From the IMG/VR virus record IMGVR_UViG_3300016643_000249, positions 7,358 through 71,357 of that record: a stretch of DNA of 64,000 nucleotides. One strand, written 5' to 3'. The notes beneath the pieces were generated by a model. It was given only the letters and a program-made list of their open reading frames with translations, was not told where the DNA came from and did not search any database. The first letter of the stretch is position 1. The number at the start of each line of letters is the position of its first letter. Origin of the DNA: a virus (Duplodnaviria; Caudoviricetes). Below are positions 3,059 through 25,410 of the stretch, piece by piece. The translations under genes were made by a program, and so were the position numbers.

Positions 3059-4033
3059 ATGAAAAAACTAATTGCATTGGTCTGCTTTATGGCAACCAAT
3101 GCGTTAGCTGCGCCGCTCACCTTCACGGCCATGGACATGGTTTCGTTGATTATACAAGGTGTGCGGTTTTCTTTTTCTGATATCGTACCAAAAGAAATTG
3201 TAATCAATGCTTCAGGTACAGGTAAAACAAAAGAAGAAGCAGTCAATAACGCCTTGGTAGTTGCTGTTCAAAAAGGTATCGGTGTATTGGTCGTAACTGA
3301 TGATACGGTCGCCAACGGAAAAGTAACTCGTAACCTTGCGGCTCAGTATTCATCTGGTGTGGTCAATTCGTATGGTGTAATTCGTTGCAATTCTTTAGGA
3401 ACTATTCAATGTGAAATACAAGCAAAAGTGTCACCATGGAAATTTCAGCGTCAATTACTTGCCAATACCAATGCAGTCAAAGTGAACGGCGATGACCTCC
3501 ATGCACAACACATGACCATGCAGTATGCCCTGGTTCAGCGAGTAAAACTAACACAGTATTATTTCTCACAATTGCAACATTCTGGTTTGGAAGTAAAAGT
3601 CAAAAGCATTAAGATGATGCCTACGATGAGTGATACTGCTACGCTTTTGTTGGACTATGAAGTGCGTATGAACCCTGAGTTTAAGAAGAACTTTATATCA
3701 TTTTTAGAAAAACTGGAGAAAGACACAAATGGAAGAACTGAAGAAAATTACAGAACCTATATTCAATGGGGTCCAACTGGCTTATATGAAAATCGGGTAT
3801 TCATTAATGCTTACAATGCGAATTTTAGGTCTATGATGAATTCATACCTTTCGGCACCAATCTCTGTTGGCATTAAAGAGCTGGGTGTATGTGAGAGGTT
3901 TGATGTACCAGGTGGAAATGTAATGACCGTTGATTGGTATGGTTTCAATAAACAACGGACAATTGAGGTGCCTGCAAATGCCTTGAAAAAGTTAAATAAC
4001 ATAACACTTACGGTAGGATGTAATGAAACTTAG
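3059..4033 (+). CDS. secreted/periplasmic protein
   Basis: Signal peptide MKKLIALVCFMATNALA; G.T.EEAVNNAL motif as in LPP20-associated proteins. Confidence 0.7.
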   Translation: MKKLIALVCFMATNALAAPLTFTAMDMVSLIIQGVRFSFSDIVPKEIVINASGTGKTKEEAVNNALVVAVQKGIGVLVVTDDTVANGKVTRNLAAQYSSGVVNSYGVIRCNSLGTIQCEIQAKVSPWKFQRQLLANTNAVKVNGDDLHAQHMTMQYALVQRVKLTQYYFSQLQHSGLEVKVKSIKMMPTMSDTATLLLDYEVRMNPEFKKNFISFLEKLEKDTNGRTEENYRTYIQWGPTGLYENRVFINAYNANFRSMMNSYLSAPISVGIKELGVCERFDVPGGNVMTVDWYGFNKQRTIEVPANALKKLNNITLTVGCNET

Positions 4034-4241
4034 TTGTAAAATTAAATGGGTTGCTACGGTCGTCACACTTGCTGGTGCCATAGCAACCGCTTTGATGTAT
4101 GACCCACTTAACATTTACTTGTTAAACCTTGGTGCTTTCTTGTTTTTGATTTGGGGTTTTATGATTAAAGACAAAGCAATGATTACAGTAAATGCTGGTC
4201 TTTTGTTTATCTACATTATTGGAATTATGGTGAGAATATGA
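4023..4241 (+). CDS. small membrane protein
   Basis: Three hydrophobic segments. Confidence 0.65.
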   Translation: MKLSCKIKWVATVVTLAGAIATALMYDPLNIYLLNLGAFLFLIWGFMIKDKAMITVNAGLLFIYIIGIMVRI

Positions 4242-4468
4242 ATAGCGTTTTTGTATTAATGATTATCACAGCAAATGGTGTTGTTGAAGCACCAAATGCT
4301 TTTAAATCACTAGCAGATTGTCAAGCTGTTGTTCAGCGTGTTCAAAGAGAAACTTATTGTGTTGAAAAGAAACCGGTTGATGTTCAAAAGGAAATGAATA
4401 CTTTTTTAGCATTGTTTAAGTCAATGCAGAGGCAGATGGAAAATGATTTCGCTAAAGATACAAAATAA
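4238..4468 (+). CDS. hypothetical protein
   Basis: ATGA overlap; N-terminal hydrophobic stretch, two Cys. Confidence 0.65.
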   Translation: MNSVFVLMIITANGVVEAPNAFKSLADCQAVVQRVQRETYCVEKKPVDVQKEMNTFLALFKSMQRQMENDFAKDTK

Positions 4469-4601
4469 AAAACCTCGCAATTTCGTAGCGAAGGATTTGT
4501 TCAGTCCTAAATATAAGCTTCGTGTAGTAAAAAGCAAGAAGAAATACAATAGGCAGTTGGACAAATCCTCACTACGAAAGGAAGTTTATGCAGCAGCCTG
4601 A
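4443..4601 (+). CDS. ArfA-like (alternative ribosome rescue factor A) basic 52-aa protein ending in YAAA
   Basis: MISLKIQNKKPRNFVAKDLFSPKYKLRVVKSKKKYNRQLDKSSLRKEVYAAA matches the ArfA pattern N..L..P.(F/Y)..RV.K.KK..Y.R but lacks GKGS; not in ORF track. Confidence 0.6.
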   Translation: MISLKIQNKKPRNFVAKDLFSPKYKLRVVKSKKKYNRQLDKSSLRKEVYAAA

Positions 4602-4992
4602 AGATAAAAAGTCACATGAATTTGATGGCATCTATTTTTTACCTTACGAAGATGAAAAAGAAGAAGGGCTTTTAATATCATATTTTGATTTTAAGAATGA
4701 AATGGCAGACGGAACACCAATTGAAGGAACTGCCATAGGACCAAAATATCATATTGCCTTTTTCAAACAAGGTGAAGATGGAATGCCGGTATTTGATGAA
4801 ACATTTGAGGCAATTCTTGGTGACCCTGGCAAATACATTCAGAACCTTACCGGTGCCGGAGTGTATGGTTGTGTGGTAAAAAAGACAAACAAATCACAAA
4901 AATGGTTTGAAGATTACCTCAATCGCACATTAAATCATATTACAATGAAGAAGATGGTCGGTTGTTTGAAGTCAATTTTAGAAACTAAATGA
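4588..4992 (+). CDS. hypothetical protein
   Basis: AAGGA RBS, 134 aa ORF. Confidence 0.75.
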   Translation: MQQPEDKKSHEFDGIYFLPYEDEKEEGLLISYFDFKNEMADGTPIEGTAIGPKYHIAFFKQGEDGMPVFDETFEAILGDPGKYIQNLTGAGVYGCVVKKTNKSQKWFEDYLNRTLNHITMKKMVGCLKSILETK

Positions 4993-5008: not shown

Positions 5009-5689
5009 ATGCCTAATTGGTGCAACAATACATTTGAACTGGTAGCTCCGAAAGAAAAGATTCGTGAGTTTGAAACTTTTCTAAACGAAAAAAATGGTAA
5101 AGATTGGTTTGATTTCTTTGCTCCATGTCCACAAGAACTTAAAGATGTTGGTGATGTATCTGTTCATCACACCGATGAGCAATTGCTAGAAAAATATGGA
5201 TACTCTGATTGGTATTCGTTTGGTCTTGGTGAATGGGGTTGTAAATGGAACTGTGATGCAAACGATTGGACAGTAAGTGAGTATGATGATGAAAACCTAA
5301 GCATCAATTTTTGGTTTGATTCGCCGTGGGGACCACCAGAAAATTTGTATCAAAACATTAGTAATGGCAATTTTGGCGAAGATTTGAATGTGTTTGCTGA
5401 ATGGCATGAAGAAGGAATGTGTTTCGTTGGTCGCTTTCAGTATGGTGATAGTGAAAATTATGAATATTCTGACCTTGATTCGCTTGATGAAATCCCGGAA
5501 GACCTGTTAGACAACTGGAATATCCGTGAAATGCTTGAAGAGCGTGCAGAATGGGACGAAGAAGAAGAATTGGAAGAGATTGCTGAAGAATTTGATTCGC
5601 TTTCCGATGATTCCAAGCAAAAAGTTTTAGATGAGTTGAAAGAAGAACTAGCAAAAAGTGATGAAACACCTAAAAAGTGGCCAAATTAA
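5009..5689 (+). CDS. DUF1281/YubB ferredoxin-like domain protein
   Basis: MPNWC.N start, WG.KW, F.F.SPWGPP motifs; acidic tail. Confidence 0.75.
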   Translation: MPNWCNNTFELVAPKEKIREFETFLNEKNGKDWFDFFAPCPQELKDVGDVSVHHTDEQLLEKYGYSDWYSFGLGEWGCKWNCDANDWTVSEYDDENLSINFWFDSPWGPPENLYQNISNGNFGEDLNVFAEWHEEGMCFVGRFQYGDSENYEYSDLDSLDEIPEDLLDNWNIREMLEERAEWDEEEELEEIAEEFDSLSDDSKQKVLDELKEELAKSDETPKKWPN

Positions 5690-6847: not shown

Positions 6848-6924
6848 CGGAGTTTAGCGCAGCCTGGTAGCGCATCTGCTTTGGGAGCAGAGGGTCGCAG
6901 GTTCAAATCCTGCAACTCCGACCA
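6848..6924 (+). tRNA. tRNA-Pro(UGG)
   Basis: Canonical cloverleaf, TCTGC-TT TGG GA-GCAGA, TTCAAAT, CCA. Confidence 0.95.
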
Positions 6925-6928
6925 ATCT

Positions 6929-7013
6929 GCGAAAGTGGTGGAACTGGTATACACACAGCACTTAAAATGCTGCGCCTTAGGGATTGAGGGTTCAAATCCC
7001 TCCTTTCGCACCA
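6929..7013 (+). tRNA. tRNA-Leu(UAA)
   Basis: CAGCA-CT TAA AA-TGCTG, long variable arm, CCA. Confidence 0.95.
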
Positions 7014-7015
7014 AA

Positions 7016-7090
7016 CTGACCGTGGTGAAATGGATATCACAGTAGCCTTCTAAGCTTCTATTCCGGGTTCAATTCCTGGCGGTCGGACCA
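7016..7090 (+). tRNA. tRNA-Arg(UCU)
   Basis: CTGACCG/CGGTCGG acceptor, CT TCT AA loop, TTCAATT, CCA. Confidence 0.92.
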
Positions 7091-7093
7091 AAT

Positions 7094-7168
7094 GGGCGAG
7101 TAGCTTAATGGTAAAGCAGGCGACTCATAATCGCTTGAGTGTGGGTTCAATTCCTACCTCGCCCACCA
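7094..7168 (+). tRNA. tRNA-Ile2(CAU) (lysidine type; Met not excluded)
   Basis: GGCGA-CT CAT AA-TCGCT anticodon arm as in E. coli ileX; CCA. Confidence 0.9.
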
Positions 7169-17849: not shown

Positions 17850-18405
17850 TAGAGATACAGAATTTATACCAGCAGAAGATAGAATTAATGCTGGTTTATT
17901 GGAAAATCATATACATTTCTTGTATGGTGATATAGAAGAAGAAAATACAATGGATGCTATCTATTGGATTACCTATGAGAACCTAAAACCTAATGACGAT
18001 ATTCTCACTCTGTATATTAATTCAGATGGTGGGTCTTTACAAGATGCTTTCGCTCTTATTGATGTGATGAGAAAGTCCAAGAAAAAAATTAGGACTATTG
18101 GCATAGGTTCTGTTTGTTCATCGGCTTTTTTAATCTTTGCTTCAGGAACTAAAGGTGAAAGGTTTATCAGTCCAACAGCTTCTGTAATGTGTCATCAATA
18201 CACCGATGGCCTGACTGGAAAATACCACGATATCAAAGCAACAGCGAAAGAACACGAACTCATTAATAACCGAATGGTTGATTTATTGAAACAATGTACC
18301 GAGTTGAACACTACAACAATCAAACGAAAACTTTTGCAACCAAGTGATGCATACTTTACAGCAGAAGAATTGATTGAACTAGGTATAGCAGACGGACTTT
18401 TCTAA
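17839..18405 (+). CDS. clpP: ClpP-family protease subunit
   Basis: LYINSDGG, CSSA (Ser), MCHQ (His), D.YFTAEE.IE.G.AD. Confidence 0.85.
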   Translation: MANNRDTEFIPAEDRINAGLLENHIHFLYGDIEEENTMDAIYWITYENLKPNDDILTLYINSDGGSLQDAFALIDVMRKSKKKIRTIGIGSVCSSAFLIFASGTKGERFISPTASVMCHQYTDGLTGKYHDIKATAKEHELINNRMVDLLKQCTELNTTTIKRKLLQPSDAYFTAEELIELGIADGLF

Positions 18406-24730: not shown

Positions 24731-25407
24731 TGAAATCTTTTAATCATGTAAAACTAAGTGAATTGGACTTTGAGTTAGAATCCGAAACAACAGAATCGGG
24801 TAGGACTTATAAAACACCGGGAGGAAAGTCCTACCCATCCATCACAACCGTATTATCCAATTACAACAAAAAAGCAATCTACGAATGGCGTCAAAGAGTT
24901 GGTGAAGATGAAGCCAATCGCATTTCACGAGCCGCTTCTGGTCGTGGCACAAAGCTTCATAACGCTGTTGAGAAATATCTTTTAAACGAAATGACTGACT
25001 TGAAATATAAGTCAATGATGCCTGACACTAAAGAGTTATTTCTCAAAGTGAAGCCGTTCTTAGATAATCACATTGGCGACATATATGGCATTGAACAACC
25101 GTTGTATAGTGACAGATTGCATATTGCTGGTCGGTGCGATTGTATTGCACAATGGGAAGGCGAGTTATCAATTGTTGACTGGAAAACATCATCAAAAGTA
25201 AAAGAAAAAAGTTACATACAAAATTACTTTATGCAATGTGCGGCATATGCTGAAATGTTTGAAGAAAGAACTGGCAAACCAATCAAACAAATTGTGGTTG
25301 CCATTGCGGTAGAAGATTCTGATATGCCTTTAATTTTTATTGAAAACAAATCGGACTATCTTTTGCCTCTCCAAGAATACATTTTAAGATATAATAGTCC
25401 GATATAA
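24730..25407 (+). CDS. PD-(D/E)XK exonuclease (Cas4/RecB-like)
   Basis: YPSITTVL, RGT.LH, AGRCD, IVDWKTS, Q.AAYA.M. Confidence 0.88.
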   Translation: MKSFNHVKLSELDFELESETTESGRTYKTPGGKSYPSITTVLSNYNKKAIYEWRQRVGEDEANRISRAASGRGTKLHNAVEKYLLNEMTDLKYKSMMPDTKELFLKVKPFLDNHIGDIYGIEQPLYSDRLHIAGRCDCIAQWEGELSIVDWKTSSKVKEKSYIQNYFMQCAAYAEMFEERTGKPIKQIVVAIAVEDSDMPLIFIENKSDYLLPLQEYILRYNSPI

Positions 25408-25410
25408 ATA
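25403..25410 (+). promoter_or_regulatory. T4-type late promoter of tmRNA gene
   Basis: TATAAATA directly upstream of the acceptor piece. Confidence 0.75.

Follow-up and report, generated by a model that had tools for sequence, protein, structure and literature searches.

A stripped-down relative of ArfA, and likely ribosome-rescue factor, encoded by a T4-like phage

We have analysed a 64,000-nt stretch of viral DNA (the window), which belongs to an IMG/VR viral record of 71 kb with an estimated completeness of 44%, and in which a 52-aa open reading frame overlaps the start of the gene that follows it. The reading that we favour, with moderate confidence and on the evidence of sequence comparison, is that this ORF is a gene of a T4-like phage whose product is a stripped-down member of the ArfA/DUF7230 superfamily and likely a ribosome-rescue factor, and that the next gene is probably coupled to it in translation. 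The phage was recognised as a T4-like myovirus by PHROG matches to baseplate wedge proteins, and the closest isolates (ca. 40% identity in a gp6-type baseplate protein) were Methylophilales phage Melnitz and Pelagibacter phages HTVC008M and Mosig. Judged by such matches, it is distantly related to Melnitz and to the SAR11 myophages. None of these three isolates matched the profile of the ArfA-like family. The positions of the features discussed here are collected in Table 1.

Table 1. Features of the window, with the evidence on which each was assigned.
Feature	Position	Strand	Evidence and remarks
Upstream 76-aa ORF	4238..4468	+	Shares 26 nt with the start of the ArfA-like ORF
GAGG Shine-Dalgarno-like motif	4429..4432	+	10 nt 5' of the ArfA-like ATG; sequence reading
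ArfA-like mini-protein gene	4443..4601	+	52 codons plus TGA; ATG start; homologues and third-position bias
Conserved core NFVAKDLFSPKYKLRVV, codons N13-V29	4479..4529	+	Aligned by hhalign to ArfA N14-E30 (A-site / RF2-contact region)
Duplex 5' arm, codons 13-21	4481..4503	+	RNA folding, covariation
Basic tail, codons K30-K46	4530..4580	+	Aligned to the mRNA-tunnel segment of ArfA, G-K-G deleted
Duplex 3' arm, codons 39-46	4558..4579	+	RNA folding, covariation
Shine-Dalgarno (AAAGGAAG) and ATG of the next gene	4577..4590	+	ATG embedded in the Y49-A50 codons (T-ATG-CA)
Conserved 134-aa gene	4588..4992	+	14-nt overlap with the ArfA-like ORF; lies 3' of the ORF in most relatives
ClpP-family protease homologue	17884..18399	+	PF00574, E 1.3e-33; record coordinates minus 7357
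Two-piece (permuted) tmRNA gene, tag ANDEKFALAA	25364..25759	+	ARAGORN; Rfam RF04321, 92.8 bits

The gene, its relatives and its neighbours

The ORF had been picked out in a first-pass annotation of the same DNA, which described it as a hidden ArfA-like rescue factor with a built-in ssrA-like degron; its limits, its translation into 52 residues and its overlaps with the reading frames on either side proved to be as described there. The same 52-aa ORF, differing from that of the window at 0-5 nt, carries a gene call in each of four sibling contigs. Seven protein clusters were 70-90% identical to it (the window's own copy was not among the called proteins in the search that gave them), and a profile of the close relatives retrieved 230 clusters, defined at 50% identity, with E<=0.001 from the 1.84 billion representatives searched, nearly all of them 40-65 aa long. 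Relatives of the ORF are encoded on 26 viral contigs. When the ORF was compared with two of its relatives, third codon positions held 12 of 19 and 13 of 22 of the differences, and many of the codon differences were synonymous. The gene calls in the siblings, the 230 clusters and the third-position bias demonstrate that the ORF is a real gene, above what chance would give.

Searches by tblastn against isolate phages gave no match for the ORF, for P0029 or for the 134-aa neighbour, possibly owing to the low-complexity filter, and the same search with P0064 matched 92 phage records, every one of them annotated as hypothetical. No T4-type late promoter motif (TATAAATA) was found 5' of the ORF.

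The 134-aa protein encoded by the next gene was modelled confidently by AF2 (pLDDT 87, pTM 0.77) as beta-sheets with a long C-terminal helix; it belongs to no Pfam or PHROG family and its model gave no convincing fold match (Foldseek E>=0.2; best VIA Z 3.9). In the relatives, a called gene occupies the position equivalent to that of the upstream 76-aa ORF. The surroundings are also syntenic in relatives, with a 72-aa DUF6552 membrane protein upstream (4023-4241, +) and a protein with a DUF1281_C domain (Api92-like, ferredoxin-like) downstream (5009-5689, +). In loci L010, L014 and L018 the DUF1281_C protein lies directly 3' of the ArfA-like gene. A smaller phage type (loci L023-L025, at about 3983-4285) has the ArfA-like core as the N-terminus of a protein of roughly 100 aa, with a long acidic C-terminal extension.

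Kinship with ArfA and DUF7230

The likeness to ArfA held at the level of the superfamily, where it was found by profile-profile comparison, through transitive Pfam matches and by a reciprocal genome scan, and did not extend to a direct match to Pfam ArfA. The Pfam HMM search that the first-pass annotation had proposed as a check gave nothing at E<=10 against PF03889 (gathering score 25.5 bits), either for the ORF or for its seven closest relatives. A search of NCBIfam with the 52-aa ORF was equally without match, and a profile search of the PDB did not retrieve the ArfA chains, its sole return being a spurious match to a polyketide synthase (6gw3). The best direct library matches of the ORF were PHROG 20887 (E 5.8e-5) and DUF7230 (PF23876; E 0.32, 11.6 bits, under the gathering score of 27 bits), and neither entry carries a function. 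AF2 gave the ORF a model with pLDDT 87 and helices at residues 14-19 and 37-51, for which there was no fold match in the PDB, a comparison that is uninformative for an extended peptide of 52 aa.

Taken together, the relatives form a bridge between DUF7230 and ArfA. The ORF's own profile yielded 114 aligned relatives, of which 60 matched DUF7230 (counted at E<=1; a few exceed the gathering cut-off) and 11 matched Pfam ArfA. One of the relatives, P0065 (E 1.1e-6 to the ORF's profile, 53% identity to the ORF over 43 aa), passes the Pfam ArfA gathering score with 32.8 bits, and members of the P0039 cluster, which also lacks G-K-G, are named "stalled ribosome alternative rescue factor ArfA" by IMG. 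When the family was aligned with enterobacterial ArfA by hhalign (E 3e-5, with a moderate probability of 73%), N13, P22, Y24, R27-V28 and Y35/R37 of the ORF were paired with N14, P23, F25, R28-V29 and Y39/R41 of ArfA, respectively. In the opposite direction, the family profile was run against all six frames of the E. coli K-12 chromosome and gave a single match (3438500-3438613, -, E 0.0069), which lay inside arfA.

Closely similar genes were found on the chromosomes of streamlined marine bacteria. A scan of bacterial genomes recovered ArfA-type proteins of 35 aa in SAR11 (Pelagibacteraceae; loci L048, L054, L055 and L058), which pass the Pfam ArfA threshold with 31-32 bits, are 67% identical to the ORF over a 24-residue core and are encoded beside housekeeping genes (dapB, endonuclease III, PfkB kinase). 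They share with the phage protein the motif [VI]AKDL-x-[ST]PKY-x-x-R[VI]VK-x-KK. The SAR11 proteins have KGKGSF and stop directly after the basic tail, whereas the phage protein has no G-K-G and carries about 15 further residues, predicted to be helical. As in the phage, the versions in SAR86 and HIMB59-type genomes lack G-K-G, and these match DUF7230 weakly or not at all. Chromosomal ArfA-type genes of 35-44 aa were seen, in all, in SAR11, in alphaproteobacterial single-cell genomes (L035-L037, L045) and in SAR86 (L039-L042, L049-L051).

On the strength of the relatives that match DUF7230 or ArfA, the hhalign alignment, the SAR11 proteins and the E. coli scan, we place the ORF, by its sequence, in the ArfA/DUF7230 superfamily as a divergent member, and do not regard it as an ArfA in the sense of Pfam. 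The link between DUF7230 and ArfA is drawn here, from shared members and profile comparison; in the literature searched we found no paper on DUF7230 and no experimental test of such a protein. By this link, a family widespread among phages and streamlined marine bacteria is connected with the ArfA ribosome-rescue family. An ArfA-family gene has been described in a different phage, the pelagiphage HTVC027P, where gp30, annotated as ArfA, has been reported to be transcribed during infection; that gene, however, has a direct Pfam ArfA domain (PMC12753301). ArfT of Francisella and BrfA of Bacillus are likewise small release-factor recruiters with a basic tail (PMC6299226), with no sequence relationship seen to the phage protein; kinship with ArfT was considered and rejected, as ArfT belongs to a different repeat family (PMC6514570).

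What the phage protein shares with ArfA, and what it has lost, can be read from the alignment. The core of E. coli ArfA had been quoted correctly in the first-pass annotation (arfA from NC_000913), and its statement that the phage protein fits this core without GKGS was borne out, since hhalign places a three-residue gap at ArfA G35-K36-G37, leaving the KGKGS motif incomplete by G-K-G. This motif is reported not to be essential for ArfA activity (PMC6299226). ArfA of E. coli (YhdL) and other proteobacteria (PF03889) shares with the phage family the spacing N-x8-P-x-[FY]-[RK]-x-R-V, after which comes a K/R-rich tail containing Y-x-R, and the core positions N13, P22, Y24 and R27-V28 show little or no variation within the family. 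In structures of the E. coli 70S-ArfA-RF2 complex, residues 21-30 of ArfA lie in the A site, where P23 stacks on A1492/A1493, and the empty mRNA tunnel is occupied by residues 31-48, close to half of which are basic (PMC5378476); in the phage protein, 8 of the residues 30-46 are K or R (K30, K32-K34, R37, K41, R45, K46). Mature ArfA is 52-55 aa long, and the phage protein is a small basic peptide of equal length. The hydrophobic patch that meets Trp319 of RF2, in which ArfA F25 contacts RF2 together with L19 and L24 (PMC5378476), is retained in the phage at the F25 position only, where it has Tyr; the phage family has an invariant Lys opposite L24 and a Lys opposite A18, the N-terminal minidomain segment is not conserved and the hydrophobic C-terminal extension is absent.

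The internal RNA duplex and the alanine-rich ending

As RNA, the ORF folds on itself, two arms of it forming a long-range duplex. In the extended form, codons 11-13 are base paired with the region around the SD and AUG from which the next gene is translated. The fold had a z of -6.0 against dinucleotide shuffles and of -5.2 against synonymous-codon resampling, the latter being the most extreme of 35 coding windows of the same length (control windows: mean -0.68, minimum -4.78). The only control window with a z close to that of the ArfA-like ORF was 3059-3217 (+), the first 159 nt of a gene for a 324-aa protein, to which that minimum belongs. Eight relatives share the duplex: it forms in six close ones (z -4.1 to -6.1) and persists in a pair of more distant ones (z -3.1). 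L029 has a similar topology that is weak (z -1.4). In an alignment of 10 sequences 84% of the cells pair, against 41-48% in slid controls, a count that is biased in favour of the duplex as this was derived from the window sequence. Three pairs have compensatory changes on both sides, with a covariation score that was reached in one of 500 shuffles. Through such a conserved duplex, the next gene probably relies for its translation on that of the ArfA-like ORF. Together with the overlap at the start codon, the duplex would be a clear candidate case of coupled expression with the 134-aa partner. This internal duplex, like the co-occurrence with tmRNA described below, is an observation that goes beyond the first-pass annotation.

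The protein does end in Y-A-A-A, and thus in a carboxy-terminal Ala-Ala as had been noted, and it is the interpretation of this ending as an ssrA-like degron that found no support. AA-COOH is confined to the closest clade and represented by one of 140 family representatives. YAA or YAAA is the ending of all the closest relatives, whereas YG is that of one close relative, and in P0011 YAA is internal, with seven more residues after it. In most of the T4-like relatives the distance from the next ATG to the end of the stop codon is 7-16 nt, with 13 or 10 the commonest values, and this ATG is contained within an xAT-Gxx codon pair, which explains the recurrence of Y, N or H followed by A, G, V or D. 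The overlap is kept while the last residues differ: those after the embedded ATG are AA(A), YF, YI, FF, IF or GF, and the endings include YA and YG. The extra Ala of the window corresponds to one extra GCA/CAG triplet, by which the next protein gains a Gln. As the ATG of the next gene is inside the Y49-A50 codons, the overlap limits which residues can stand at the end, and YAAA is best explained as mainly a by-product of the start of the next gene. Conservation of the ending as a degron was not seen; in the closest clade AAA-COOH could still act as one, although this is unlikely.

A fuller form of the same idea would have the ArfA-like factor kept low by an A-A-A degron for ClpXP unless its C-terminus is lost, for example when the mRNA is cut in the 3' arm of the duplex to leave a stop-less message, as with arfA. 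Several features go with it besides the ending itself: the tag of the phage tmRNA ends in ALAA, a ClpP homologue is encoded, the conserved duplex (about 21 bp) is in principle of a size for RNase III and has its 3' arm towards the end of the ORF, and E. coli ArfA remains active when truncated at N47, although not after M40 (PMC5378476), N47 aligning near residue 43-44 here. However, the rarity of the AA ending and its dependence on the next ATG speak against this, and so does the position of the 5' arm at codons 13-21, since a double-strand cut would also sever the ORF there and the message would be destroyed rather than trimmed. Moreover, the E. coli message is made stop-less by a compact and local 3' hairpin, whereas the phage duplex is long-range and the phage gene has an ordinary stop codon, which amounts to a different design; searches for a terminator and for a local 3' hairpin like that of arfA gave neither (local 3' fold z -1.37). 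Neither SmpB nor a Clp ATPase was found in the 44%-complete record. We therefore regard the degron explanation as unlikely. The ordinary stop codon, the length of mature ArfA and the lack of the G-K-G of KGKGS are the reasons why the phage gene looks constitutive.

Proposed function and the rescue components of the phage

By analogy with ArfA, the peptide would most likely recognise non-stop ribosomes and bring a release factor of the host to them. When a ribosome has stalled at the 3' end of a broken mRNA without a stop codon, its vacant mRNA tunnel would be entered by the basic tail (residues about 30-46), and the conserved core (N13, P22, Y24, R27-V28) would recruit in the A site the host release factor, RF2 if the analogy with ArfA applies, by contacts that may differ from those of ArfA. 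The recruited factor would then free the peptide, and ribosomes would be returned to phage translation when host mRNA is being degraded or cleaved. The duplex, by pairing with the SD/AUG of the next gene, would make that gene dependent on the ArfA-like ORF for its translation. Should recruitment of a release factor by the peptide prove true, infection by these phages would include active upkeep of the host ribosomes available for use, and the forms without G-K-G and with a short N-terminus would represent the minimal ArfA.

A peptide with the tail and the A-site core, both of which are present, could also fill the tunnel and the A site without activating a release factor, e.g., so that host rescue is switched off or ribosomes are parked, and several of the elements by which ArfA activates RF2 (A18, L19, L24 and the N-terminal minidomain; PMC5378476) are indeed missing. 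However, SAR11 and SAR86 chromosomes hold versions that are equally reduced, among housekeeping genes, which argues for a useful rescue function, and the presence of tmRNA in the phages points to the promotion of rescue, so that such a blocker appears to us quite unlikely. That the ORF would be mainly a leader with an incidental peptide, its translation opening the RNA structure to switch on the next gene, would suit the conserved overlap and the pairing with the SD/AUG region, but is very improbable given an amino-acid core conserved in 230 clusters, including relatives with another downstream gene or none, and mostly synonymous substitutions.

Recruitment of a release factor is our preferred reading, and in this phage it would have a counterpart, as a two-piece tmRNA accompanies the ArfA-like gene and the phage would thereby bring two ribosome-rescue components, the tmRNA and the putative ArfA-like factor. 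Two-piece tmRNAs have been described previously for Melnitz-like phages (PMC9004378). Of the other viral records with an ArfA-like gene, 14 of 20 have a tmRNA (5 of 5 large genomes and 9 of 15 further fragments), and one phage clade is seen to combine an ArfA-like gene with a tmRNA of its own. A ClpP homologue is present in all five of the related large phage genomes, four of which have one in-frame TAG inside the match.

It is tempting to combine all these elements into a translation quality-control kit of the phage, formed by the two-piece tmRNA, the ArfA-like recruiter and ClpP, in which the conserved 21-bp duplex would be processed, by RNase III or the like, to leave a message without a stop codon, the factor would build up only past the capacity of tmRNA, and the Ala-rich end would mark the full-length protein for proteolysis. 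We find this scheme highly unlikely; if true, the phage would have re-invented the bacterial feedback loop between tmRNA and ArfA with another RNA design.

Two minor observations concern the RNA genes. The octamer TATAAATA occurs at 25403-25410, within the span of the tmRNA gene, and four tRNA genes (Pro-TGG, Leu-TAA, Arg-TCT and Met-CAT) are located at 6848-7168 (+), 2.2 kb 3' of the ArfA-like gene.
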